Assembly: GCA_964644035.1 (NCBI GenBank)
Contig: CAZXUH010000001.1
Span: 131,712 to 195,711 of the forward strand
Direction: 5' to 3'
From: an uncultured Candidatus Saccharibacteria bacterium
Lineage (GTDB): Bacteria; Patescibacteriota; Minisyncoccia; Phycocordibacterales; DAORIS01
DNA length: 64,000 nucleotides
The notes beneath the pieces were generated by a model. The model ran no database searches and had not been told where the DNA came from. It was given only the letters and a program-made list of their open reading frames with translations. Positions 24,144 to 46,095 of this stretch are shown here, in pieces (position 1 is the first letter of the stretch; the number at the start of each line of letters is the position of its first letter). The position numbers and the translations under genes are program-made.

Positions 24144-24797
24144 ATGGTCAAGGACATCTTATATAAAGAAAAATTTGAACAATTGCAACACCAGTTGCTA
24201 GCATCCTACTCAACTTTCTATGTATGGAAATCACTCCAAAAAGAAGAATATAATGAATTTTATAAAATAAACAATGGTTTTTGGTCAGCAGTCATTCCAG
24301 CACTACAGCATGAATGGTTTATGGGACTTGCGCGTGTATTTGAGGATTCAGCTTATAGTAAAAAGAATAAGATAATCTCAGTACATTCTCTTATTCAAGA
24401 GCATCCAAATAAGCAAAGAGCAGAAGCCGCTCAAGAATTTCTTGATAAAAACCAAAAAGTTATTAAAAATATATCGCGAATTAGAGATCATCGGCATGCC
24501 CACAATAATGCAAAATTTTTAGTAAATCCAGAAGAATTTGAAAATATTTTTTCCATTCAATATTCTGAGATCGAACATATGTTCGACTTTAGTGGTAAGT
24601 TGCTTAGTCTGTTACATCCAGAAGACGGACATGGATACATGCTGGGTCATATGAAAGATGAAGCTGAGCTTCATACTAAAGATGTTATGGACGGTATTCG
24701 CTACTTTAACTTTAAAAGAAAAGAACACAGAGAAAGATATGTAAAAGAGGGTGGCGATTATCAGTTTCCTCCAACGGACCAAAGTAAGATTAAATAA
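24144..24797 (+). CDS. Hypothetical all-alpha protein, possible HEPN/Abi-like
   Basis: 217 aa. RIRDHRHAH segment (R-x4-H spacing). Sits directly downstream of the tRNA-Gln. Family not confirmed. Confidence 0.45.
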   Translation: MVKDILYKEKFEQLQHQLLASYSTFYVWKSLQKEEYNEFYKINNGFWSAVIPALQHEWFMGLARVFEDSAYSKKNKIISVHSLIQEHPNKQRAEAAQEFLDKNQKVIKNISRIRDHRHAHNNAKFLVNPEEFENIFSIQYSEIEHMFDFSGKLLSLLHPEDGHGYMLGHMKDEAELHTKDVMDGIRYFNFKRKEHRERYVKEGGDYQFPPTDQSKIK

Positions 24798-29565: not shown

Positions 29566-29650
29566 AGGAAATAGACAACAGAAATCTTTTTGCTACTATA
29601 TACCGAGCTAGTCCTCCCTGTGGGCCCTCCGCCATGAGTCCCACGGAACG

Positions 29651-29690
29651 CCTGCATGTCCGAAGCAATCGAGACATGCAGGTTTTTTAT
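29651..29690 (+). terminator. Strong rho-independent terminator
   Basis: Perfect 10-bp stem cctgcatgtc/gacatgcagg, a 12-nt loop and a 7-T run. Confidence 0.75.
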
Positions 29691-29914
29691 TGTCTGAACA
29701 CATTGACACTCTTATATATCTGTATCTGGTTTTCTTATGAACAAGTTATACATCGTTATTAACCGTTTTTCCACGGACTTATAAACAAAATTATCCACTT
29801 TTGCAATTGTGCTATTTACACGAGTGATAGACTGGCTGAGTCGCATTGTGTGTATGCGAAGAAAGTCAGATATGTTATTTACCCAAACACATAATTTTTC
29901 GGTTTCGGGAGCGC

Positions 29915-29977
29915 AGCTCATAACGAGAGCTGTCTTCTGCTGTGAACAAAAGATAACAGCGGGGGACAGCTCTTTTT
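29915..29977 (+). promoter_or_regulatory. Candidate attenuator in the ~380-nt leader of the tasA-like operon
   Basis: Alternative hairpins share GAGCTG. The first is cagctc-ataacga-gagctg. The second is a terminator-like gagctgtc...(32 nt)...gacagctc (29927-29972) followed by ctttttg. Inference from sequence only. Confidence 0.3.
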
Positions 29978-30081
29978 GCTTGATGGGCACTGTAAAAAGG
30001 TCGATACGTTGCAAGCGAGCGCTGTAGAAGTAGAGAAGTAGCAAAAAGAAGTTATTAATAGTTATTTTATTCAATCAATAC

Positions 30082-31752
30082 ATGAAAAAAAGAATTTTCC
30101 TCAGTGTTGGAATGATTGTATTTGTGACCGCTGTAGTTATCGGCGCAACAGGTGCATTCTTTTCTGACACAGAAACATCGGCTGATAACATCTTCACTGC
30201 GGGCGCAATTGACCTGCAGGTGGACAATACCAGCTATTACAACGGCGCTGTCTCGACAAGCACGACATGGACAATGCGTGATCTTACGATCGAGAAGTTT
30301 TTTAATTTCCTAGACTTGAAACCGGGAGACACTGGTGAAGACACCATCTCGCTTCATGTCAATAACAACGATTCATGGCTCTGCGCCGACGTTACATTGA
30401 CTTCGGACAATGACAACTCACTCACTGAACCAGAATCAGAAGACGGTGATGCAACAGGCGGTATTGGCGAAGGAGAACTCGGTGATCAGGTCAATTTTAT
30501 TTGGTGGGCGGACGACGGCGACAATGTCCTCGAAACTGATGAAACAGTATTGCCTGGAGGTCCTATTGGAGCACTCGGAGTCGGAAATACGGCAACAGTT
30601 GCTCTTGCAGACTCTCAGACAAATATTTGGGGTGATGAAGGTCCACTTCCTGGCGCATCTGTACGATATGTTGGCAAGGCATGGTGCTTTGGTGATATTT
30701 CAGCAGCAGCCCTTACACAGGATGGTTTTGGAACATCAAGTCCTCGCACACCAGCCAACTCAACAGGCGGTATTGCATGCGATGGATCTGATCTAGACAA
30801 CACCGCTCAGACAGACAGTCTCACAGCAGACGTCTCATTCCGAGCAGTTCAGTCACGAAACAATGGTAGCTTCGTATGTGAAGCTCCAGATGAAGAACCA
30901 GTAGAACCTACAGTAGGAGCACTTCTTAGCTCATACGTAGCTCCAACAGGTGAATCTTGCAACGTAGTTGTCTCATCTTCAACACCTTCACTCGATACGA
31001 TTCAGGAAGGTGTCGATGCAGCTCTCGCAGGTCAAACAGTGTGCGTACTTCCTGGAACATATACAGGAGACGTCAATGTTAATAAATCAATCACTCTTGC
31101 AGGTGGAGGATCAGCAAATACGACCGTTAATGGTGTCGGACTAGGCGAAGCAGGTGCTCTCGTTATTTCAGCCAACAACGTAACTGTCAAAGGCTTCAAT
31201 GTAAATGGTACTGGTGTCTCAGCTATCCGAATCTCGGGTGCTCGCTCTGGTATCACGATCAATAGCAACAAGATGACTTCGGCAACAGGCCAGAATGCAT
31301 TTCTTGCTGATGGCGGTCAGACAAACCATGTTCTCTCAAACAATGAATTTGTCGGATCAAATGCAGGTCCAATTGCATACGTAAATGGTCTTGCAAGCGT
31401 CAATGTGGCTTCAAACAATGTTGATTTCAACAACAACACTTTTAGCGGATCAGGAACAATGGCTCTTGGTCAGGAAGCTTTTGGTAGCGATGTAAAACTC
31501 AACAAGTTTTCAGCTTCAACAAGCTTCACGGATGTTGAAGACTGGACAGCAGGTAGCTTGTTCAATCAGAACAACTTCAACGACGCAGGTTTGAATCTCC
31601 AGCATTCAGAAAATGGTAATACTGGTGAAACAGGCATTACCAATGCAGAAAACAACTGGTGGGGCGATGCAAACCCAGCAGACGGCGATGTTAATGCGAA
31701 TGCAGATGTAGACTTCAACCCATTTGCAGCAAGCGCATTCCCACAGAACTAG
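30082..31752 (+). CDS. TasA/camelysin-like (peptidase M73 family) secreted protein with SipW-cognate signal peptide and C-terminal right-handed beta-helix domain
   Basis: 556 aa. The N-terminus MKKRIFLSVGMIVFVTAVVIGATGAFFSDTETSADNIFTAGAIDLQVDN matches B. subtilis TasA (GGGTWAAFNDIKSKDATFASGTLDL). The C-terminal half has NVTVKGFNVNG...ITINSNKMT...VLSNNEFVG...VASNNVDFNNNTF beta-helix/PbH1-like repeats. Confidence 0.7.
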   Translation: MKKRIFLSVGMIVFVTAVVIGATGAFFSDTETSADNIFTAGAIDLQVDNTSYYNGAVSTSTTWTMRDLTIEKFFNFLDLKPGDTGEDTISLHVNNNDSWLCADVTLTSDNDNSLTEPESEDGDATGGIGEGELGDQVNFIWWADDGDNVLETDETVLPGGPIGALGVGNTATVALADSQTNIWGDEGPLPGASVRYVGKAWCFGDISAAALTQDGFGTSSPRTPANSTGGIACDGSDLDNTAQTDSLTADVSFRAVQSRNNGSFVCEAPDEEPVEPTVGALLSSYVAPTGESCNVVVSSSTPSLDTIQEGVDAALAGQTVCVLPGTYTGDVNVNKSITLAGGGSANTTVNGVGLGEAGALVISANNVTVKGFNVNGTGVSAIRISGARSGITINSNKMTSATGQNAFLADGGQTNHVLSNNEFVGSNAGPIAYVNGLASVNVASNNVDFNNNTFSGSGTMALGQEAFGSDVKLNKFSASTSFTDVEDWTAGSLFNQNNFNDAGLNLQHSENGNTGETGITNAENNWWGDANPADGDVNANADVDFNPFAASAFPQN

Positions 31753-31779
31753 GTCTTCTTTATCAGTTAATCAACTAAC

Positions 31780-33135
31780 ATGAAGAAGATACTACTCAGT
31801 ATTGGCTCTATCATCTTCGCGGGCGCTATCCTCGTCGGGGCGACGGGTGCGTACCTTTCTGACAGCGAGACCTCGACTGGCAATACCTTTGCCACAGGCG
31901 TTATTGATTTGAAAATCGATAATGAAAGCTATGTCACCAATGATTTTGGCAAACTGGTCTTCAGTTCGTCGACTTCATGGGCACTTTCATCGCTTGCCGG
32001 AAAACTCTTTTTCAATTTCTCTGACATTAAGCCAGGGGATATTGGAGAAGACACCATCTCGCTTCACGTAAACAACAACAATGCGTGGGCGTGCATGGCG
32101 GTCAATCTGACCGGCACACCGGAAAACGGTCAAAACGATCCAGAAGCAATCGTTGATCCTACGTCAGGCGCCAATGACGGTGAACTTCAAAATGAACTCA
32201 ACTTTGCTTTCTGGGGTGATGACGGCGACAATGTCTATGAACAAGGAGAGACTATTTTCAAGCAAGGGCTTGTAAAAAATATCTTCAACGGACAAAACTG
32301 GGCGCTTGCCGATTCCGCTACCAATATTTGGGGCACACCGGGACCAATTCTCGGCAATACCGTCAAATATGTTGGCAAAGCATGGTGCTTCGGACCACTT
32401 GGTACTGCTGCCAAGACTCAAGACAACTTGGGTAAGACAGGCAACAACGGACCATTGGTACGCGGAACGGGCTTTACCTGCAGTGGTGACACGATTGGCA
32501 ACATCGTGCAAAGCGATGGTCTCAAAGCCAATGTCAGCTTCACTGCAGTTCAGTCTCGAAACAATGGCAGTTTTGTCTGCGGTCAGACAACAACACCTCC
32601 ACCCCAAGCAACTTCAAGCTCCACATTTCTCTCGGATAATTTCGAAAGTTATACACCAGGGGATGAATGGGATGAAGAATGGCCAGATGGATCGTCGAAT
32701 TATGATTGGGATGAAGTTGGCGGGGTAAAGTTTTTGGCTGGTGTAGGCAATCCCGGAAAGGCAGCCGATCTCAATGCCGACAACAACAATGCCAGCGTTC
32801 CCAATAATAAAGAGACTCTGACGGCCACATATCTCGACGTTACGGGATACAACACGATTGTATTCAAGTATGATCGTAAGACCGATGACACCAATTCGCC
32901 TCCACAGGCAGTTGGTCCTCAGACTTTGAAGGTAGAGTATAGCGTCAATGACGGTGCAAGCTGGACGACGCTCGAGACAGTCAATGGAGAATCCGCATGG
33001 ACGACCAAGACTTTCTCACTCTCACCTTCGGCAAACAACAAACCAAGAGTAAAGGTCAGATTTACATTGACTGGTCAAGACGCAAGTAATCACGCCTACA
33101 TCGACAATGTAACGGTGACAGGCATCACACCTTAG
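31780..33135 (+). CDS. TasA/camelysin-like secreted protein, paralog 2, with distinct C-terminal beta-sandwich-like domain
   Basis: 451 aa. Same SipW-cognate N-terminus (GATGAYLSDSETSTGNTFATGVIDLKIDN). Conserved core GEDTISLHVNNNNAWACMAVNLTG...FAFWGDDGDNVYE...YVGKAWCFG. The unrelated C-terminal region ends ...AYIDNVTVTGI. Confidence 0.7.
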   Translation: MKKILLSIGSIIFAGAILVGATGAYLSDSETSTGNTFATGVIDLKIDNESYVTNDFGKLVFSSSTSWALSSLAGKLFFNFSDIKPGDIGEDTISLHVNNNNAWACMAVNLTGTPENGQNDPEAIVDPTSGANDGELQNELNFAFWGDDGDNVYEQGETIFKQGLVKNIFNGQNWALADSATNIWGTPGPILGNTVKYVGKAWCFGPLGTAAKTQDNLGKTGNNGPLVRGTGFTCSGDTIGNIVQSDGLKANVSFTAVQSRNNGSFVCGQTTTPPPQATSSSTFLSDNFESYTPGDEWDEEWPDGSSNYDWDEVGGVKFLAGVGNPGKAADLNADNNNASVPNNKETLTATYLDVTGYNTIVFKYDRKTDDTNSPPQAVGPQTLKVEYSVNDGASWTTLETVNGESAWTTKTFSLSPSANNKPRVKVRFTLTGQDASNHAYIDNVTVTGITP

Positions 33136-33151
33136 TTATTCATTATTCACC

Positions 33152-34522
33152 ATGAAAAAAATACTGTTAAGCATGAGTGTAATAGTCTTCGTAGCCGGCG
33201 CCTTCGCAGCTGGTGCGACGGGTTCGTTCTTTTCTGACACCGAAACTTCAAGCGGCAATACGTTTACCGCTGGAGCAATCGATCTCAAAATCGACAACTC
33301 AAGCTATTACAACGGTTCACTATCGAGCAGCACCAGCTGGTCGCTGACGGACCTCACGATTCAGAAGTTCTTTGATTTCTCGGACGTTAAGCCAAGTGAC
33401 TACGGCGAAGATACGATTTCGCTGCATGTCGACAACAATGACGCATATTTGTGCGCCAATGTGACGCTTACGAGTAATGATGATAATGGTTTGACCGAGC
33501 CGGAATCGGAAGTCGATCAGACCGCAGGAGTAGGACAGGGCGAGCTTGCCGATGAAGTCAATTTCATCTGGTGGGCGGACGACGGCGACAATGTTCTTGA
33601 AGACAATGAAAATGTCATTTCTCAAGGACCGATCGGTGCACTTGGAGTCAATGGTTCGACAACTGTTCCTCTCGCTGATTCAGAAAACAATATCTGGACA
33701 GGTCAAGGTGGACCAGTGCCTGGAGCGCAGACGCTCTATATCGGCAAGGCGTGGTGCTTTGGCGGTATTACTGCAAACCCTCTCGATCAGGACAATGCGA
33801 CAAGCACCAATCCTAGTCTTGATAACAATGACAACTCAATTGCCGGTGAACCTGCAGACGGAGGATATCTTTGTGATGGATCAGATCTTGATAACAGCAC
33901 TCAAAGCGACAGTCTCACAGCCGACGTAACATTTACCGCTGTGCAGGCACGTCACAATGATGAATTCCTCTGCACACCTCCTCCACCTCCACCAGTGCGA
34001 CTGGCCTGCACTCCTGGACAGGAATGGGCAGATACGGTTGTCACGAGTAATCATGGCAATCGCAAAGATGGATCACTTATCTTAGTTGACCGACGCAATC
34101 CAACATTTGCTCTTGGTCCAGCACAGACAACAGGTACACCTTCGGATGCTGTTGTCACACCAGCGAGTTTCTTTAGCCTTGGATTCAATGTCGGTACAAC
34201 AACAACTCGAAGTCTGACGGTTGCATTCAATGACAACATTATCGTCAATGCAACTGGCAGCGACGTGCGTATCTATGAAGTGACAGGAGGAGTCTATCCC
34301 GATGAACACATCATGGTTGAAGCAAGTCAAAACGGCATTGGATGGACAACCATTGCCGCAGACGCAATTCGCGATGCTGATATTGATCTAGGGGCACTGC
34401 CTTGGGCTAGGTACATTAGAATCACCGACATCAATACAACGGGACCATTCCCAAGTGATGCCGATGGATATGATGTTGATGCTGTCAGGGCACTTAATTG
34501 TGAACAAACACCAGTGGTGTAA
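33152..34522 (+). CDS. TasA/camelysin-like secreted protein, paralog 3, with poly-Pro linker and third distinct C-terminal domain
   Basis: 456 aa. N-terminus GATGSFFSDTETSSGNTFTAGAIDLKIDN. Core nearly collinear with paralog 1 (GEDTISLHVDNNDAYLCANVTLTSNDDNGLTEPESE...NFIWWADDGDNVLE). PPPPPPV linker before a C-terminal domain. Confidence 0.7.
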   Translation: MKKILLSMSVIVFVAGAFAAGATGSFFSDTETSSGNTFTAGAIDLKIDNSSYYNGSLSSSTSWSLTDLTIQKFFDFSDVKPSDYGEDTISLHVDNNDAYLCANVTLTSNDDNGLTEPESEVDQTAGVGQGELADEVNFIWWADDGDNVLEDNENVISQGPIGALGVNGSTTVPLADSENNIWTGQGGPVPGAQTLYIGKAWCFGGITANPLDQDNATSTNPSLDNNDNSIAGEPADGGYLCDGSDLDNSTQSDSLTADVTFTAVQARHNDEFLCTPPPPPPVRLACTPGQEWADTVVTSNHGNRKDGSLILVDRRNPTFALGPAQTTGTPSDAVVTPASFFSLGFNVGTTTTRSLTVAFNDNIIVNATGSDVRIYEVTGGVYPDEHIMVEASQNGIGWTTIAADAIRDADIDLGALPWARYIRITDINTTGPFPSDADGYDVDAVRALNCEQTPVV

Positions 34523-34528
34523 TAACAC

Positions 34529-36097
34529 ATGAAAGTAATCTTCAACACTTTTTACTATCTCTTCATTGCAGGCATAGTAGCCATTGGACTTTTGCTCCTG
34601 GCGACGCTTGTTCCAGTGCCAGGGAATTTCAAGGTGAAAGTGGTGAAATCCGGTTCGATGTCGCCAGCTATACCAACAGGAAGTATCGTGGTCATTAAAC
34701 CCGAAAATTCTTATAGTGTTGGCGATATTATTACCTTCGGTGCAGATACTAAGACTCAGGTTCCTACGACGCACAGAATTATTGCTGTGCAGGGTAGTGG
34801 ATCGGGCAAAGTATTTACCACTCAAGGTGATGCCAACGATGCGCCAGATACGGCAGCAACGCGGCTATCGGATATCAGAGGCAAGGTAGTGTTTTCAGCG
34901 CCGTATGTCGGCTATGTGCTCGACTTCGGAAGGAAACCATTAGGTTTTGCACTGCTTGTAGGTGTTCCAGCACTCTCTATTATCTTCGATGAAATCATGA
35001 AGATCGTCAGAGAGATTAGAAGAATTCGCCGAAAGAAAAACCATCCAGAAGACAATATCGATGAATCTGCAAGTGGAGTGAGTACTACAGTACACAATAC
35101 TGTACAACCGCCAACAGTTACATCTACCTATTATCCGAAACATGACATAGCCAATAAAAGGATGATGTCAGCATCGATGGATGGAATAGTCAGACCTCAA
35201 CAGATAAGGAGGAATATAGAAAGTAATGCAGCCAGCCGGGCCTATCAGGTCCAGCCTGGGCGTGTAGCATATTTTTCCGCTCGAACACTTCTCGTGGCCT
35301 TCGTAGCTGCTGGGTGTATGTTTGGTCTGTCTTCTATAGGCGGTACGCTGTCATATTTCAATGACAGCGAAACATCGACAGCTAATCTTCTAAGAGCGGG
35401 AATACTTGATGTCGAAATTTCACCCATTCTTACGGACAATAGTGTTGCTCGTTTGAGTGTACCTGATGAGACAGCAAGCACGACCGAAGAAGTCAAAGAC
35501 AAACCGACAAGCAGCCAGCTCTTCAGAATTTCTCTTACTGATAGTGATAAGGAAAATGTACCTTTTCTTTACACGGTCTTTGGGGAATTCAATAAAGACA
35601 ATCCCGCTGGTTGCGAAGCAGTAGAGCTCAGCGTCTTCATGAATGAATATCATTATGATGGACTGCTGTCATCATTTGCTTTGCCGGCAACATCTGCGGC
35701 TGGTACAGGGCAGTTTATTGTCTCGGCACCAACCGGAGATTCTATTCTTGCATCGGGGGCAATATGTGCAGGTAATCTTATTTTCAGGGCTTATCCTGAA
35801 AATACAGAAGATCCGCTCAATTCGCCTTTCTCAGATGAGGAAAGGTATCCTTTCACGGTTCAAAATTATATTGAACCAGTGTCGATACCAGCAGCTCAAG
35901 AAATAGTTGCAGAATCTGTAGTTATTGAGGTTCCAAAAGAAACAGCAGAAGAAATAATAACTAATCCAGAAACAGAGAGTGAAACTCCTGTAACGGAAGT
36001 AATTGTTGAACCTGTTTCAGAGCCTGTGGTAGATATACCCCTTGTACCTGAGACATCAGCTACTGAAACACCACATACTTCTACCGAAACTATATAA
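34529..36097 (+). CDS. SipW-type (archaeal-type, S26B) signal peptidase I, fused in frame to a C-terminal protein that itself begins with a SipW-cognate signal peptide
   Basis: Residues ~1-175: N-terminal TM, VVKSGSMSPAIPTGSIVVIKP...THRIIAV...TQGDANDAPD...GKVVFSAPYVGYV, C-terminal TM (compare SipW VLSGSMEP). Residues ~215-522: basic n-region, h-region TLLVAFVAAGCMFGLSSIGG, then TLSYFNDSETSTANLLRAGILDVEISP (TasA-type cleavage region) and an acidic Pro/Glu/Thr-rich tail. There is no in-frame stop between the two parts. Confidence 0.65.
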   Translation: MKVIFNTFYYLFIAGIVAIGLLLLATLVPVPGNFKVKVVKSGSMSPAIPTGSIVVIKPENSYSVGDIITFGADTKTQVPTTHRIIAVQGSGSGKVFTTQGDANDAPDTAATRLSDIRGKVVFSAPYVGYVLDFGRKPLGFALLVGVPALSIIFDEIMKIVREIRRIRRKKNHPEDNIDESASGVSTTVHNTVQPPTVTSTYYPKHDIANKRMMSASMDGIVRPQQIRRNIESNAASRAYQVQPGRVAYFSARTLLVAFVAAGCMFGLSSIGGTLSYFNDSETSTANLLRAGILDVEISPILTDNSVARLSVPDETASTTEEVKDKPTSSQLFRISLTDSDKENVPFLYTVFGEFNKDNPAGCEAVELSVFMNEYHYDGLLSSFALPATSAAGTGQFIVSAPTGDSILASGAICAGNLIFRAYPENTEDPLNSPFSDEERYPFTVQNYIEPVSIPAAQEIVAESVVIEVPKETAEEIITNPETESETPVTEVIVEPVSEPVVDIPLVPETSATETPHTSTETI

Positions 36098-36120
36098 ATT
36101 TCGATTGAAGTGATAGTAGA

Positions 36121-36160
36121 ACAAACCACCCGAGGAGGGTGGTTTGTTTGTTGTTTTATT
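36121..36160. terminator. Bidirectional terminator between the convergent tasA/sipW operon and the cohesin operon
   Basis: aaaccaccc-gagga-gggtggttt 9-bp perfect stem followed by gtttgttgttttatt. Confidence 0.7.
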
Positions 36161-36198: not shown

Positions 36199-37644
36199 TT
36201 ACTCCATTTCCTCGATCTTTTTAATGAGATATTTTTCAGTAAGCTTAATGTTGTCTGAGAATTTCTTAAGTATCTTCGCTTCTTCTTTTGTGAGTTTTTT
36301 ATCACCCTTTGCGTTTTCAAGCGTCTCAACATGTTCATTGAGATCATCTTCGAGCAATTTCATTGCGCGATGAATTTCATTCTTAGTTTCGTGCAAGACT
36401 TTGTCAGTGCTTTGTTTAGGCTTTCTCGTCTTACGCATGATGAAGTAGGTGAGAGCCCAGACAAAGAGTAGTAGGCCAAGTATGGATACTATGAGAAGCA
36501 AGGTGCTATTTGCAAGGAGTGAGGTTGTGCCGCTAGTCTTTGCGGTATTTGGTTCAGGGAAGTTTATTGATAGCGATTCTTCTGCTGTATTGCCCGCAGC
36601 ATCGAATGCTTTGACAGTTACACCACGAATGCCTGCCGGTACATTGGCAAAGGTGTATCGTGTAGGGCCATTGGCGTTTGTACTCTTTATTTCAGCAGGT
36701 GCCTGACCATCTACAGTAATCAAATATTTTGCAATACCCGACGCACTATCTTTGGCAGAAATATCTATAACAGCCTGACCTGAATCCAGGATCGAATGGT
36801 TTACAGTAAGTGACTCTGGAGCAGTAGTATCGATTTTGACCTTTCTATGCGTAATTTTGCCCCAACCAGAACTATCTCTATATCGGATGTGGAAATATGA
36901 AAGCCCTTCTTCTATATCATTGACCTCTTTTGAATTTATAGCTGGTGTATAGGAAACAGTTGGTGTTGAGTCGGGATCTCTATCAAATAAAAGCTGAAGA
37001 GAAGTTACCCCTTTTGGAACTGACCAGAGAAAGGTTGTGTCGCTAAGAGAATACCATTTCTCAGGATCAGGCATGTCCTTTGAGGACACAATAGGAGCAG
37101 CTGGACCTACTTCTGTAGGTTTAGGAGTCTCTTTTACCTCTGGTGTCGTAGGTTTTGTGGCTGGAGGTGCGGTCACGACGACTGATACTCCGGTTTTACT
37201 TTGGGTAGCGTCGGTTCCTAGGCCGTCATTGGCACGGACGGTGGCTGATTGGAATGCAATTGTGGCTTTGCCATCTCTCTTGGCGCGCATTTGTATCGAC
37301 AAAACCTTGCCGGCTGAACCTGTATATCCAGGGTTAGGTACGCCACCATTAAACGTCACCATGCCGCCAGAAAATGCAGGCTGCTCTACCCACAAACTAA
37401 GCACCGATCCAGTGGTATTGACTGAAAGAATCTCCAGAATATCAGAGGGGACTGAAATCACCCCTTCGACGCTATTGATAGGAACGCCGTTGGTATTGAC
37501 GTAGATAGTTGCTGTGACTGTTTCGCCAGTTTGAACCTCAGCTCTTCCGGTCGTGATATACACGCTTGCAGCATCTATAACCTGAGCGGAAAGAAAGAAT
37601 CCTGCAATGATGACGGTTACGATAACATTCTTTAAAATCTTCAT
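36199..37644 (-). CDS. Cohesin-like domain protein with C-terminal TM anchor and cytoplasmic coiled-coil tail
   Basis: 481 aa. Signal peptide. GETVTATIYVNTNGVPINSVEGVISVPSDILEILSVNTTGSVLSLWVEQPAFSGGMVTFNGGVPNP...GKVLSIQMRAKRDG follows the cohesin pattern (GDTVxVPV...NxDFxxxYDPxVLE...G.I.F.F...DG.FA.I.FKV). Then Thr/Pro-rich linkers, Ig-like repeats, the TM helix LLLIVSILGLLLFVWALTYFI and a charged tail. Confidence 0.5.
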   Translation of the reverse strand: MKILKNVIVTVIIAGFFLSAQVIDAASVYITTGRAEVQTGETVTATIYVNTNGVPINSVEGVISVPSDILEILSVNTTGSVLSLWVEQPAFSGGMVTFNGGVPNPGYTGSAGKVLSIQMRAKRDGKATIAFQSATVRANDGLGTDATQSKTGVSVVVTAPPATKPTTPEVKETPKPTEVGPAAPIVSSKDMPDPEKWYSLSDTTFLWSVPKGVTSLQLLFDRDPDSTPTVSYTPAINSKEVNDIEEGLSYFHIRYRDSSGWGKITHRKVKIDTTAPESLTVNHSILDSGQAVIDISAKDSASGIAKYLITVDGQAPAEIKSTNANGPTRYTFANVPAGIRGVTVKAFDAAGNTAEESLSINFPEPNTAKTSGTTSLLANSTLLLIVSILGLLLFVWALTYFIMRKTRKPKQSTDKVLHETKNEIHRAMKLLEDDLNEHVETLENAKGDKKLTKEEAKILKKFSDNIKLTEKYLIKKIEEME

Positions 37645-38531
37645 TTCTTCTTTAATGAATATTTATAGATAACAATGCCGATAATGATAAGTACTGCTAT
37701 GTTGAGAATGAGCCACAACATTTGATTATTCGATGTTCCTGAAGCAGCTTTTGAAGTTTTTACAGTAACAGATTTGATATTTCCAGCATTGTCGACAGCA
37801 CGAACGGTTAGTTCTCCAGAGAGTGATTGATCTTGGAGAATATATGTATTGCCCGAGCGTACGAGAGGTAAGTCATTTTCTATGACTTCATAACGATTGA
37901 TACCCGATTCGAGATCGATAGCATTGAAGCTGGCGAAATATTTGCCATCGTAGGTGTCTTTGTCATAGCCGATCACTACGTCGAAATTTTGCGGTGCGAT
38001 CTTGTCGGCAAGTATAATTTCTGTAAGTTCATTGGATGTTGCTCCAGTCGTTTGTGTGACATCGATAGTAGAAGATTTGCCCGTCACCGACACTTTGGTG
38101 CCTTTGCCATCATGCAAAAATACAAATGCATTATCAAATGAAGCGTTTAGAGAACCAGGTGTGGTAGGTCTTATAGCAATAGAAAATACTTTTAGTCGAC
38201 TGCCAGAAATACCAGACGTAGCACCGCCGGTAAAGGTAATTTTCTTTCCTGAGAAAGAAGGTTTGTTTGGCCAAAGACTAAATAGGGAACTATTGGTTGT
38301 GATTGCTGTTATTTCATATTCACCCTCAATGGTCAGTGATCCTTCGACAACGTTTATTTCTTGTTTTTCAGTATCAAGTATGACATCGACGATAACTGTA
38401 TCTCCCGCATGCACGATTTGTGACGGTTCATTGAGATAGATAGACATTGCACGAGTTGTCGCAGGTAAGCACACAAAAGCTGTACAAATAGCTAGAGAAA
38501 ATAAAATCTGTTGTATAAAGGTGTGTTTCAT
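37641..38531 (-). CDS. Secreted cohesin-like domain protein (paralog of the N-terminal domain of the downstream gene) with C-terminal TM
   Basis: 296 aa. AGDTVIVDVILDTEKQEINVVEGSLTIEGEYEITAITTNSSLFSLWPNKPSFSGKKITFTGGATSG...LKVFSIAIRP shares the cohesin-like pattern. C-terminal hydrophobic helix. ATGA overlap with the next gene. Confidence 0.5.
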   Translation of the reverse strand: MKHTFIQQILFSLAICTAFVCLPATTRAMSIYLNEPSQIVHAGDTVIVDVILDTEKQEINVVEGSLTIEGEYEITAITTNSSLFSLWPNKPSFSGKKITFTGGATSGISGSRLKVFSIAIRPTTPGSLNASFDNAFVFLHDGKGTKVSVTGKSSTIDVTQTTGATSNELTEIILADKIAPQNFDVVIGYDKDTYDGKYFASFNAIDLESGINRYEVIENDLPLVRSGNTYILQDQSLSGELTVRAVDNAGNIKSVTVKTSKAASGTSNNQMLWLILNIAVLIIIGIVIYKYSLKKK

Positions 38532-38533
38532 TT

Positions 38534-40852
38534 TTATAATGCTTTACCTGCCGTACCCCATTGCGAGAGCAGTATTGAAAAGTCTATTGAATCGACACGT
38601 CGGTCTTTGTTGATATCAACGCATGTATTCTTAAATGGTGGAGCGGTCTTCCAGAAAGCGAGCAATATAGAGAAGTCAACTGAGTTTACATTGTTGTCGC
38701 CATTGAGGTCTGCTCCTTTGCAGGCTCCTTGCGGAGTTGGTACGGGAGTAGGTGCTGGTGCACCTCCACCGCCTCCACCACCGCCGGGTGAGGGTGTTGG
38801 AGTAGGATCAGGAGTGCTATCACTGGTAATGGTAAATGAACGTGATGAACCTGATGATTCGGTGCCGAAGTAGACGACAACCTTGAAGTAATACGAGCCA
38901 GCTGTCGAAACTGTAGCAGTAAGATTGGTATTCCAGTCTTCACCAGGGTTGATGAATTTTGCGCCGGTGCCATGGTAGACATCATTGCCACCACCGCAAG
39001 CATTGTCGGACTGACTGACGACGCACCATTCGTATTGGTATTCATAACCAGCCAAACCTTCATTGGTAATTGTTAGATTTGCACTGACGTTTGGTGTGCT
39101 CGTAGCGGTGACGCTATTGATAATCACTTGGGCAGGCGAGCCGGCGACAAGCCAATAGTCATTGGTTGTAATGATTTTGCCGCTTTCGACTTCTGTTTCT
39201 ACGACTGATTCCCATACACCCTGTGACGCTCCTGAAGAGACAGAGTATGTGTATTCATAGAGTCCAGCTCCAATATCGGTCATCGGTACAGAAGAGACTA
39301 CGACGTTTCTATCAGCATCGTAGAGTGTGATTTCTGGAGCGGCAAAAACATCTTGGGCAATACTCGAGCTATTGAGTGTTGATACTTTTGCTCGGTACGT
39401 ACTGCCATTTTGAACAGATGAATAGTCGGACATAGTTACGAGCCATGTTGCAGTTTGATTGGCCAAAGATGCGCGTGAAGAAGTAGTGGTATCGATATTA
39501 TCTGCGAGGCGCTTACCAATGGAGTTGACCGTATTGAGACTTGAAGTAAGGGTATTCCAGACATCGGCGGCAGTAATATCGTTGCCATATTGGGTTAGAG
39601 TTCGTGCGCTGTTACCCCACACAGCTGAAACAATACTTGATGTTGAATAGTCGGTCAGAGTTCTGCTGGTTACGCTCCATACATCTGCTGCAGTGAGCGT
39701 ACTCGTACTTCTACTTGATATCTGTGCATCGATATTGTCAGCTAGGCGTTTGCCAATACTGCCTGATGTGGTGAGTTGGGCTGCAGCACGATTCCATACT
39801 TCATACGCTGTTGTTGAAGCCAAAGAAGCTGCGTTTGTCGATGATCCATAATCAGTAAGTGATCGACTCGCATGAGTCCAAATATCTGTTGCAGAAATAT
39901 CGTTGAGACCATTTATAAGATTCCTATTGGCAAGTATTTCAGCAAAAATACCCGATGTGGCAATCTGAAGACTTGAAGTCAAATCAGTATTGGTGACCAA
40001 TGATCCGCCTGAACTAAGTGTAGAGTCGGTAAGTCGTCGTGTTGCGTTACTCCATATTGCTGAAGCAATGCTTGTTGTGGAATAGTTGGTGAGTGTTCTA
40101 GTTGTTGCATTCCAGACTTCATCAGCGGTCAAACTACTTGTTCCACGACTTGAAATTTGTGCGTCGATATTGTCTGCAAGAAGTTTTCCGAATGTTCCTG
40201 GTGAGGCAAAGCCGGCAACAGCTCTATTCCATACCTCATATGCTGTTGTCGAAGCAACTGTCGATGATCCATAATCGGTAAGTGTTCTACCTGTAAAGTT
40301 CCAAATATCACTTACTACAGATCCGAGAGATGAAAGTGTCCTTGTGCCACTATTCCAGACTGCTGAAGCAATGCTGCTTGTTGAAACAGCGGCTGAAGCA
40401 ACGGTAAATGTTCTATCTGTTTTAATAAGATCTCCTGCAAGGGCTGTGCCGCAGGTCATAGATGTAGGCCAATTGCCAAGTGCAGCATCAGAAGCAAGGG
40501 AATATGAATAATAATGCCAGCCAGTTGCTTCGGCAGTCATGGTTGCATTGTTTACTTTTTGAGTGCTTGTCGAATCGTATATTGTTACCCAGCAAGGAGT
40601 AGTGGTAGCTGAATAATTGTCATCGTATACAAATTCGCCAATAGTAACCGTATCTCCAGGGGAATATCTCTGATACTGGGCAAATGCCGTATGTGAAAAA
40701 CTAATACCAAATGTAAATAAAAACAGTAAAAAGAATAGTTTTGATTTTAGAGAATAATGTTTTTTACAAAAAATAGAGTAATGCATGGAAGTAGCAGTCC
40801 AATTGCTCATAATGATAGCCCATATAGCATTAGTTATCAACACGATATGCAT
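38534..40852 (-). CDS. Large secreted repeat protein with C-terminal type-I dockerin domain
   Basis: 772 aa. Likely start at the internal MHYSIF (signal peptide KKHYSLKSKLFFLLFLFTFGISFSHTAFA|QY). At least ten ~19-aa repeats of consensus xxA(S/D)(D/E)VWNxx(T/S)RTLT(D/N)Y(G/S)S, within a duplicated ~110-aa super-repeat. PTPTPSPGGGGGGGGAPAPTPVPTP linker. C-terminal GADLNGDNNVNSVDFSILLAFW...DINKDRRVDSIDFSILLSQWG is a duplicated F-hand dockerin. Confidence 0.55.
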   Translation of the reverse strand: MHIVLITNAIWAIIMSNWTATSMHYSIFCKKHYSLKSKLFFLLFLFTFGISFSHTAFAQYQRYSPGDTVTIGEFVYDDNYSATTTPCWVTIYDSTSTQKVNNATMTAEATGWHYYSYSLASDAALGNWPTSMTCGTALAGDLIKTDRTFTVASAAVSTSSIASAVWNSGTRTLSSLGSVVSDIWNFTGRTLTDYGSSTVASTTAYEVWNRAVAGFASPGTFGKLLADNIDAQISSRGTSSLTADEVWNATTRTLTNYSTTSIASAIWSNATRRLTDSTLSSGGSLVTNTDLTSSLQIATSGIFAEILANRNLINGLNDISATDIWTHASRSLTDYGSSTNAASLASTTAYEVWNRAAAQLTTSGSIGKRLADNIDAQISSRSTSTLTAADVWSVTSRTLTDYSTSSIVSAVWGNSARTLTQYGNDITAADVWNTLTSSLNTVNSIGKRLADNIDTTTSSRASLANQTATWLVTMSDYSSVQNGSTYRAKVSTLNSSSIAQDVFAAPEITLYDADRNVVVSSVPMTDIGAGLYEYTYSVSSGASQGVWESVVETEVESGKIITTNDYWLVAGSPAQVIINSVTATSTPNVSANLTITNEGLAGYEYQYEWCVVSQSDNACGGGNDVYHGTGAKFINPGEDWNTNLTATVSTAGSYYFKVVVYFGTESSGSSRSFTITSDSTPDPTPTPSPGGGGGGGGAPAPTPVPTPQGACKGADLNGDNNVNSVDFSILLAFWKTAPPFKNTCVDINKDRRVDSIDFSILLSQWGTAGKAL

Positions 40853-45170: not shown

Positions 45171-45893
45171 ATGGACGAGCTGCAGAAAAAAATAAAAGAA
45201 TACTCTCCATTTTTAGAAGACCTTTTTAGGAGAATATACTTTGTAACAGTCTTTTTTGTAGCAGCTTTTGTTGTCAGTTTTTTACTTTCAGGACCGCTTA
45301 TAAAGTATTTGATCAAATTTTTTGATTTCAAGGATGTAGTCTTGGCCGCAACCTCTCCATTTCAACTCATTGACCTCGCAATGAATTCAGGAATCTTTTT
45401 TGCAGTTGTGTTTACGGTGCCAGTGATCCTGTATCACACATACGCATTCATCGGAAGCGGTCTGAGGAGAGGGGAGAAAAAATTCTTTTTTCTTTTGCTT
45501 CCAATCGCACTTCTATTATTTCTTTTTGGTTTTGTATACAGCTTTTGTATCCTGTATTTTGCCATGCAAACACTCGCTAGTATCAATCTAGCGCTTGGTG
45601 TGCAAAATCTCTGGAATATAAGCATGTTTCTTTCAGAAATTATCTCTACGTCGGCTCTACTTGGGCTTATTTTTGAGTTTCCCATATTTGTAACAGTGCT
45701 CGTAAAAATGGGTGTAATCAGTGTCGATTTTCTTAAACAAAAGAGGCGATATGCAGTCTTTATTATGTTCATCGGCACTTCTTTACTTCCCCCAACCGAT
45801 GGTATATCATTATTGATGATGGTGTTGCCACTGGTGATTATTTATGAGATCACGATCATCTATAATCAAGTAAGTTTCAGGCAATTAGCTTAA
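45171..45893 (+). CDS. tatC: Twin-arginine translocase subunit TatC
   Basis: 240 aa with 6 TM helices. N-terminal amphipathic segment and TatC-like topology (LSGPLIKYLIKFF..., FFAVVFTVPVILYHTYAFIGSGLRRGEKK). Confidence 0.75.
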   Translation: MDELQKKIKEYSPFLEDLFRRIYFVTVFFVAAFVVSFLLSGPLIKYLIKFFDFKDVVLAATSPFQLIDLAMNSGIFFAVVFTVPVILYHTYAFIGSGLRRGEKKFFFLLLPIALLLFLFGFVYSFCILYFAMQTLASINLALGVQNLWNISMFLSEIISTSALLGLIFEFPIFVTVLVKMGVISVDFLKQKRRYAVFIMFIGTSLLPPTDGISLLMMVLPLVIIYEITIIYNQVSFRQLA

Positions 45894-45918: not shown

Positions 45919-46095
45919 ATGTTTGGACTTGGAACAAGAGAGCTGATAATCATTGCTGTAATCTTCATTCTACTTTTTGGTGCTAAGAAAATTCCGGAAT
46001 TGGCAAAAAGTCTTGTCGATGCAGTACGTCACATGCGCGGAGCATTCAAAGATGGAGACGAATCTAAGCCAACAGACGATTCGCGACGAAGCTAG
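45919..46095 (+). CDS. tatA: Twin-arginine translocase subunit TatA/E
   Basis: 58 aa, not in the track (<60 aa). MFGLGTRELIIIAVIFILLFGAKKIPELAKSLVDAVRHMRGAFKDG... matches the TatA consensus (MFGxGxxELxIIxVIxLLxFGxKKLPELxxxLG). Confidence 0.75.
   Translation: MFGLGTRELIIIAVIFILLFGAKKIPELAKSLVDAVRHMRGAFKDGDESKPTDDSRRS

Follow-up and report, generated by a model that had tools for sequence, protein, structure and literature searches.

A Putative TasA-Superfamily Fibre Operon with Diverse C-Terminal Modules and a Peptidase-Substrate Fusion in Patescibacteria

A run of four genes in an uncultured, Paceibacteria-like bacterium of the Candidate Phyla Radiation (CPR), or Patescibacteria, encodes three paralogous proteins, P1, P2, and P3, each with a predicted SipW-type signal peptide, a TasA-like core, and a C-terminal module of its own, together with a SipW/Sec11-type signal peptidase that is fused in frame to a fourth predicted substrate, here named SipC. 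From sequence and structural models we infer that this operon probably builds a surface fibre of the TasA superfamily by donor-strand exchange. The genes lie in a 64,000-nucleotide stretch of contig CAZXUH010000001.1 (GenBank assembly GCA_964644035.1), called the window below, and their coordinates are collected in Table 1. CPR bacteria are ultra-small, mostly uncultured, and thought to live attached to hosts, and in most lineages the means of attachment is unknown. Attention has been directed almost entirely at type IV pili, which are usually held responsible for the appendages of these cells.

Each of the three proteins P1, P2, and P3 opens with one hydrophobic segment, located by hydropathy at residues 5-23 in P1. 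The NCBIfam model for the SipW-cognate signal peptide, TIGR04088, has a cut-off of 19 bits and scores 20.2 bits in P1, 22.6 bits in P2, and 27.3 bits in SipC, while P3 carries the same signal-peptide motif by alignment and regular expression. A preliminary description of this DNA, made from the letters and the open reading frames (ORFs), had reported three tandem genes with near-identical SipW-cognate signal peptides. The three genes are present in the ORF list exactly as claimed and the cognate type of the signal peptides holds, by score in P1 and P2 and by motif in P3, but the peptides are similar rather than near-identical. The N-terminal motif reads T-G-A/S, then F/Y-F/L-S-D-x-E-T-S ... 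A/T-G-x-I-D-L, and is collinear with the mature N-terminus of Bacillus subtilis TasA, AFNDIKSKDATFASGTLDL, a sequence verified against Protein Data Bank (PDB) entry 8AUR. Alignment to the TasA cleavage site, TWA/AFND, suggests FFSDTETS, YLSDSETS, and FFSDTETS as the mature N-termini of P1, P2, and P3, respectively. The public gene call of P3 (P0115) begins at an internal ATG at 33173 and yields 449 residues; the start at 33152 is more plausible because it restores the MKKILLS n-region common to P1 and P2. Apart from P1, P2, P3, and SipC, the SipW-cognate motif has no further occurrence in the window. An origin as precursors of ribosomally synthesized and post-translationally modified peptides, which the JGI name [quoted passage not shown] would imply, was rejected, as the proteins are 450-556 residues long and have folded domains.

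The three proteins are alignable over approximately 265 N-terminal residues and then diverge completely, in agreement with the earlier view that each paralogue has a different C-terminal module. The shared core of about 240 residues is 66% identical between P1 and P3 and 49-51% identical between P2 and either of the others, and a hidden Markov model of the core scores P2 at 332 bits and P3 at 414 bits. Pfam family PF12389 (camelysin, Peptidase_M73), with a gathering score of 22.5 bits, gives weak matches to the window proteins: P2 passes at 23.5 bits, and P1 (20.8 bits) and P3 (17.6 bits) fall below. These matches cover mostly residues 2-50, that is, the signal peptide and the first strands, and reach residue 112 in P1. 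A HMMER comparison with Peptidase_M73 had been suggested earlier, and of the three proteins it places P2 alone above the gathering score. In the wider family, PF12389 is found at E<=1e-3 in 90 of 103 close homologues and in 52 of 86 representatives of 50%-identity clusters, with a best E of 1e-8.

A comparison of profiles is more telling. Using hhalign, the CPR profile of the mature core was matched to a profile of mature TasA/CalY with 92.5% probability (P = 5e-7), mature residues 2-66 being aligned with TasA residues 2-45 over the donor strand, the first strand, and LKPGD, and the reversed control gave P = 0.32. Because both profiles were limited to the mature parts, signal peptides could not drive this score. 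When approximately 21 N-terminal residues were removed from both profiles, a collinear match persisted (P = 0.005), with LKPGD and the C-terminal Q-x-DS...F-x-F-x-A-x-Q strand kept in register. The family profile is required for this result, a single sequence compared with TasA being not significant at P = 0.045. Sequence searches of the PDB with profiles of the four window proteins and with 123 family members gave no hits; the likeness to solved TasA at the sequence level is too weak for detection by HMMER.

Structural modelling gives a consistent picture. For the mature P1 core, AlphaFold2 yields a model with a predicted local distance difference test (pLDDT) score of 89.3 and a predicted template modelling score of 0.85, and the top matches of the model in Foldseek are 7UEG and 8AUR, the latter with a probability of 0.92. 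The margin of these TasA-like matches over generic jelly rolls is small, and the core is for this reason regarded as a distant member of the TasA superfamily and not as a TasA orthologue. By profile comparison and predicted structure, the core is a TasA-like jelly roll with an N-terminus homologous to that of TasA, which upholds the TasA/camelysin-like assignment made earlier from the letters. We have little doubt that P1, P2, and P3 are SipW-processed, secreted proteins of the TasA superfamily.

The motif of the mature N-terminus is nearly invariant among representatives that are 34-56% identical to the reference sequence. In most of the 150 listed representatives it begins at residue 25-28, provided that the match extends to the query N-terminus. 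The segment homologous to the donor strand (F2, D4, E6, S8, N11) is among the most conserved parts of the CPR family, and the first 19 mature residues of the P1 core are unstructured in the monomer model, with pLDDT 50-67. The donor strand of TasA consists of residues 28-38 (PMC9674648). A SipW-processed donor-strand fibre is proposed because this segment is conserved, is unstructured in the monomer model, and is common to SipC.

As the chief alternative, the same proteins could be monomeric surface or secreted adhesins or lectins, with the jelly roll as a calcium-binding, disulfide-bonded stalk or carrier and the N-terminus kept for recognition by the peptidase. We consider this unlikely, since near-invariance extends over mature positions 2-20, well beyond the cleavage site, in a stretch that corresponds by homology to the donor strand and linker of TasA and is unstructured in the monomer model. 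A conserved TapA-like accessory protein with the same N-terminus also argues against monomers, and all characterised TasA-superfamily proteins polymerise, with the mature N-terminal strand entering the next subunit. Several features do weigh against a TasA-type fibre. The core has an insertion of approximately 20 residues after the first strand, which TasA lacks, and four invariant cysteines and an invariant acidic cluster (DLKPGDxGED, WWADDGDNVLE) that are not found in TasA. No core-only subunit is encoded at the window locus, so each protomer would bear a module of 170-290 residues, and we know of no solved TasA-superfamily filament that shows a module on every protomer. Proteins of 270-300 residues that consist of the core only do exist elsewhere in the family.

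The acidic motifs, together with a donor strand containing D4 and E6, resemble the calcium-responsive AbpX, and several co-expressed paralogues could tile a surface. Both would suit a calcium-dependent two-dimensional lattice, matrix, or S-layer-like coat in place of discrete pilus-like fibres. Such a coat would still need donor-strand fibrils as its building block and is hence a variant of the fibre proposal, and regular lateral packing would be hampered by the bulky, diverse C-terminal modules; we regard it as quite improbable. Secreted enzymes, either metalloproteases of the camelysin (M73) type or glycan-degrading beta-helix proteins, are highly improbable. The Pfam family name, "Camelysin metallo-endopeptidase", and the NosD/pectate-lyase-like beta-helix of P1 speak for enzymes, as do one subtilase domain and one pectinesterase-like match in the family. 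However, what PF12389 matches is the signal peptide and the N-terminal strands, not a catalytic site, and the modules of the family are mostly binding domains, with few catalytic ones. As none of the four proteins contains HExxH or any other recognisable metalloprotease motif, the metalloprotease reading was rejected.

The C-terminal modules of the three subunits differ in how well they can be assigned. In P1, residues 307-394 match TIGR04247 (NosD family) with E 9e-10, over model positions 1-81 only, and the score of 37.7 bits compares with a cut-off of 300 for the whole protein. On its own, the module gives no Pfam match at E<=1 and no PDB sequence match. Homologues of the module occur at loci L080, L047, L065, and L036, and sub-threshold Beta_helix/NosD Pfam matches are reported for L080 and L036. 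A right-handed beta-helix is a likely candidate fold for the P1 module. The module of P2 had been described as beta-sandwich-like, and this is borne out by PF21471 (Reelin_subrepeat-B; gathering score 27), which scores 29.5 bits on the full protein and 31.8 bits on the module, covers profile positions 23-126 of 127, and is located at residues 343-446. The P2 module is retained in the P2 orthologues of many loci. P3 has the proline linker and third domain that the preliminary description had noted, PPPPPP followed by about 170 residues. This domain has no Pfam or PDB match and is found again in 50 other family members.

Across the family, the core is combined with modules of adhesin type, namely SpaA_2/3/4, VWA, Beta_helix, CBM96, InlB-like repeats, and DUF11, which speak for an adhesive fibre, and also with CARDB and with the subtilase domain and pectinesterase-like match mentioned above. 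The closest orthologue of P1 (locus L003, 9926-11572) has 75% core identity and the same four-gene synteny, and it bears two SpaA_2 prealbumin-like domains where P1 of the window has the beta-helix candidate. This difference is direct evidence for the exchange of modules on a conserved core, and the idea of interchangeable modules is upheld by both this swap and the family-wide variety. The further suggestion that the modules form tips is disfavoured, because all three subunits have the donor-strand motif and the modules would then decorate the fibre along its length.

The fourth gene encodes a signal peptidase of the SipW/Sec11 type, followed by an extension of 360 residues. TIGR02228 matches residues 11-157 with 103.2 bits (cut-off 51.85), the LepB-type model TIGR02227 gives 25.9 bits, under its cut-off of 47, and the best PDB sequence matches are human SEC11C (2.8e-7) and SEC11A (7.2e-7). 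The Bacillus SipW equivalog NF046067 scores 103.8 bits and does not reach its cut-off of 190. Judged by these matches, the peptidase is the same type of enzyme as Bacillus SipW, with no orthologue-level match. The predicted catalytic residues S43 (SGSMSP), H82 (TTHRI), and D101 (GDAN) align with the motifs of SEC11C, and the columns SGSMEP, THR, and GDAN are near-invariant in 17 homologues. By this alignment the enzyme is of the endoplasmic reticulum/archaeal type (SipW/Sec11, MEROPS S26B), with a Ser-His-Asp and not a Ser-Lys arrangement. The earlier assignment of a SipW/S26B peptidase within 6 nt of P3 thus stands, but its account of a plain SipW had missed that the 522-residue product is a fusion with a substrate.

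The peptidase domain is followed by a linker of variable length and sequence among homologues, with 13 K/R and 7 D/E over residues 165-250, and then by a third hydrophobic segment (residues 249-272 by hydropathy), TLS, and YFNDSETSTANLLRAGILDV. TIGR04088 matches this region at residues 259-291 with the top score of the locus, and the predicted topology places the cleavage site on the catalytic-domain side of the membrane. On this evidence, the peptidase is fused in frame to a fourth SipW-type substrate, SipC. An assembly artefact was rejected as the source of the fusion, since the identical ORF is found on independent assemblies and fused homologues (20-36% identity) occur in many genomes.

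SipC is strongly acidic (43 D/E and 10 K/R) and contains a TasA-like N-terminal strand motif and a compact beta-sandwich at residues ~325-445 with two conserved cysteines. Its AlphaFold2 model has approximately 15 disordered N-terminal residues, a sandwich with pLDDT 85-96, and a disordered tail in which E, P, T, and V are abundant. The N-terminus, YFNDSETSTANLLRAGILDV, compared with FFSDTETSADNIFTAGAIDL, appears to mimic the donor strand of the major subunit. A fold search with the SipC model found no specific neighbour, and no homology to TapA (YqxM, TIGR04087) is detectable in SipC. In TapA, the N-terminus is nearly identical to that of TasA and is followed by a complete immunoglobulin-like fold and a disordered C-terminus, and TapA primes the filament (PMC10151520). 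SipC shares this layout, having a SipW-type signal peptide, a donor-strand-like N-terminus, a complete small sandwich, and a disordered C-terminus, and by analogy it is a candidate initiator or anchor. Anchoring by sortase was rejected: LPATS occurs once, in SipC, where it lacks conservation, and no sorting signal comes after it.

A possible mechanism can be outlined from these features. P1, P2, and P3 would be exported by Sec and cut after T-G-A/S by the co-encoded peptidase, and the freed N-terminal strand would insert in the jelly-roll core of the next subunit to give a head-to-tail chain. Calcium may assist through the invariant acidic cluster. Each subunit would contribute a different C-terminal module on a Pro-rich linker, namely the beta-helix, the reelin/CBM-like sandwich, or the unassigned domain, and because the subunits carry different modules, several binding modules would be presented all along the fibre. 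A plausible function is attachment to host cells or to a substrate. Cleavage at TLS/YFND, either in cis or in trans, would free SipC with its complete small sandwich, donor-strand-like N-terminus, and acidic disordered tail, and SipC could then act as a functional analogue of TapA, an initiator from which the first donor strand comes; it may also anchor the fibre to the wall or membrane. Taken further, the fusion may be a self-priming assembly machine, in which the membrane-embedded peptidase cleaves its own passenger where secretion takes place and the TapA-like primer seeds polymerisation of the three module-bearing subunits. The adhesive fibre would then be a heteropolymeric "bottle-brush" and would represent an attachment organelle, distinct from type IV pili, that is conserved in CPR bacteria of the Parcubacteria/Microgenomates type. 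Some of the fusion protein might also stay uncleaved and hold the fibre in the membrane. We put forward this last proposal tentatively, as possible though doubtful.

The system is widespread in CPR bacteria. The core family has 2259 matches in a 90% clustered database. At 50% identity, it comprises 1470 clusters for E<=1e-3, 1027 for 1e-10, and 448 for 1e-30. The named sources are all CPR: Kaiser-, Nomura-, Zambryski-, Yonath-, Taylor-, Vogel-, and Portnoybacteria, Paceibacterota/Minisyncoccia, and Woese-, Davies-, and Levyibacteria. Gene order was surveyed at 78 loci from GTDB species representatives, five of which end at a contig edge exactly at the last core gene. In all 73 loci with downstream sequence, one to four tandem core genes (mostly three) are followed by a SipW-type gene on the same strand. 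By gene content, the operon is conserved across the sampled Parcubacteria/Paceibacteria lineages and is present in Microgenomates as well. Two loci have a second SipW-type gene besides the one downstream of the core array; it is divergently oriented and upstream of the array in both L079 (7388-8068, minus strand; a metagenome-assembled genome labelled Gammaproteobacteria) and L080 (3399-4199, minus strand; Woesebacteria).

The fusion is one of several arrangements. Among the surveyed and related loci, classified by length and motif, 23 SipW-type genes are long with an internal cognate motif and 13 are long without a motif match; 16 are short and followed by a separate, often overlapping motif-bearing ORF, and 24 are short without such an ORF. 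The passengers of fused homologues are just 20-36% identical, yet they retain the motif and the two cysteines, which makes the fusion a real and recurrent architecture. In L004 (4970-6416), L009 (6656-8414), L034 (5804-7238), L040 (3304-5015), and L078 (2052-3684), a short sipW gene is overlapped or directly adjoined at its 3' end by a separate SipC-type ORF, mostly in another frame; gene fission or fusion or assembly frameshifts could be responsible. The array itself is old, because the window paralogues are 70-76% identical to orthologues in other genomes and 49-66% identical to their neighbours. A recent tandem duplication, which the preliminary description had raised as a question for phylogeny, was rejected on these figures in favour of ancient orthologous groups.

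The four ORFs run head to tail on the plus strand over 30082-36097, with intergenic gaps of 27, 16, and 6 nt. Their common direction, the short gaps, and the terminator-like hairpin right behind the last gene suggest that they form one operon. The locus is no artefact of the window, since public assemblies made independently contain an identical copy, in one case on a 568-kb NCBI contig. The G+C content rises from ~0.39 upstream to 0.45-0.48 over the four genes. No recognisable Shine-Dalgarno sequence is found in the 25 nt before the starts at 30082, 31780, 33152, and 34529, where AT-rich stretches occur.

Table 1. Predicted features of the operon and its flanks in the 64,000-nucleotide window.
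Feature	Position	Strand	Extent	Remarks
Upstream hairpin and T-run	29651-29689	+		10-bp stem; 85 nt past the upstream HD-domain gene; read from sequence
Non-coding leader	29690-30081	+	~390 nt	upstream of P1; no credible ORF
P1	30082-31752	+	556 aa	ORF
P1 SipW-type signal peptide	30082-30156	+	aa 1-25	predicted cut TGA/FFSD; TIGR04088
P1 TasA-like jelly-roll core	30157-30879	+	aa 26-266	putative donor strand FFSDTETSADN; LKPGD; WWADDGDNVLE; four invariant Cys
P1 linker and C-terminal module	30880-31752	+	aa 267-556	candidate right-handed beta-helix
P2	31780-33135	+	451 aa	ORF
P2 signal peptide and TasA-like core	31780-32580	+	aa 1-24 and aa 25-267	TIGR04088; PF12389
P2 C-terminal beta-sandwich module	32581-33135	+		Reelin subrepeat-B-like; weak CBM_4_9 similarity
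P3	33152-34522	+	456 aa	ORF
P3 signal peptide and TasA-like core	33152-33973	+	aa 1-25 and aa 26-274	alignment, motif, core HMM
P3 poly-Pro linker and C-terminal domain	33974-34522	+		PPPPPP; domain of ~170 aa
Peptidase gene	34529-36097	+	522 aa	ORF; start 6 nt past P3
SipW/Sec11-type signal peptidase I domain	34529-35023	+	aa 1-165	transmembrane segments TM1 aa 12-30 and TM2 aa 138-156
Charged linker	35024-35272	+	aa 166-248	predicted cytoplasmic; directly behind TM2
Third membrane segment, internal SipW-type signal peptide	35273-35353	+	aa 249-275	predicted cut TLS/YFNDSE
SipC, fourth substrate	35354-36097	+	aa 276-522
Intrinsic-terminator-like hairpin	36119-36149	+		13-bp stem, T-run; 3' of last stop codon; closes the operon
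Large secreted/surface protein genes	36199-37644, 37641-38531, 38534-40852	-		convergent to the operon

Upstream of P1, 516 nt (29566-30081) contain no credible ORF, which is unusually long for such a compact genome. The upstream hairpin, whose loop of more than 8 nt is outside the reach of the terminator scan, probably terminates transcription of the HD-domain gene before it and would thus mark the 5' limit of the transcription unit of the operon. Because a sigma-70-like site (29572-29599) precedes this hairpin, it may instead be a terminator or attenuator within a long leader. A search of the 5' leader against Rfam gave no match, and conservation of the leader is limited to a 73-nt patch kept in L003, with nearly none in related loci; neither result supports a riboswitch or small RNA in the leader.

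Of the three convergent minus-strand genes, two encode paralogues with a C-terminal transmembrane segment and weak OmpL47-type barrel matches, and the third encodes a protein of 772 residues with an MG2 domain, a poly-Gly/Pro stretch, and a type I dockerin. These cohesin/dockerin-like genes were rejected as members of the system, as they lie beside the operon only in L021. The genes tatC (45171-45893) and tatA (~45919-46095) are found ~9 kb downstream, with Pfam labels taken from the identical locus L001. Despite their presence, Tat export of the fibre proteins was rejected, since the proteins have no twin-arginine motif. A HEPN_AbiU2 gene is located at 24144-24797.

Homologues of PF12389 in Patescibacteria were recorded in one sentence by Wang et al. 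2022 (PMC9245690), and some database entries of family members are named "TasA family protein". A full-text literature search on TasA/SipW-type systems in CPR bacteria returned nothing beyond that sentence, and the system is absent from the recent CPR papers that were checked. Three things appear to be undescribed so far: the conserved multi-paralogue operon, the swapping of modules, and the peptidase-substrate fusion. The operon joins a TasA-type polymerisation domain to exchangeable adhesin modules and has a dedicated peptidase. Should the proteins polymerise, they would constitute a second, simple, chaperone-free fibre system by which organisms with minimal genomes attach to hosts or substrates, the first TasA-superfamily fibre with a binding module on every subunit, and a case in which a signal peptidase and its own substrate are fused.

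The closest known counterpart is the tapA-sipW-tasA operon of B. subtilis (TasA, PDB 8AUR). Both systems have a gene for a dedicated SipW/Sec11-type peptidase beside those of its substrates and signal peptides of the TIGR04088 type. TasA shares the jelly-roll core and is counted as the best PDB neighbour of the CPR core, and its mature N-terminus, x-F-x-D...A-G-x-L/I-D-L, and LKPGD are homologous to those of the CPR core. TapA, like SipC, is an accessory with the N-terminus of the major subunit, a complete small sandwich, and a disordered tail. The CPR operon differs in its order, with the substrates first and then the peptidase, and in having three old paralogous subunits, each with a C-terminal module, where Bacillus has one subunit. 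In addition, the insertion, the four cysteines, and the DDGDN acidic motif distinguish the CPR core from TasA, and the CPR accessory forms one polypeptide with the peptidase, which scores under the SipW equivalog cut-off.

Archaeal filaments of the TasA superfamily include AbpA/AbpB (7UEG), AbpX, the Sulfolobus threads (7PNB), and the haloarchaeal Tafi pili. Their loci often contain a dedicated signal peptidase and minor, tip, and anchor proteins; those of Tafi, for instance, encode a dedicated peptidase, a tip protein, and anchors composed of a transmembrane segment and a jelly roll (PMC12337348). The sequence likeness of the CPR core to these archaeal proteins is weaker than that to bacterial TasA. 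Tafi pili are Tat-dependent, whereas the CPR proteins have no twin-arginine motif. In the archaeal filaments, the tip or adhesin function resides in a separate minor protein, whereas every CPR subunit has a module, and the cited literature reports no peptidase-substrate fusion for them.

In architecture only, the CPR subunits also resemble adhesins of the FimH type in chaperone-usher systems and sortase-assembled pilins of the SpaA family, which combine a pilin-type polymerisation domain with a binding module. Many members of the CPR family have the SpaA_2/3/4 prealbumin-like or VWA domains that occur in Gram-positive pilins and tip adhesins. In contrast to the chaperone-usher and sortase systems, the CPR operon contains no recognised chaperone, usher, or sortase gene or LPXTG signal, and its predicted polymerisation domain is of the TasA type.

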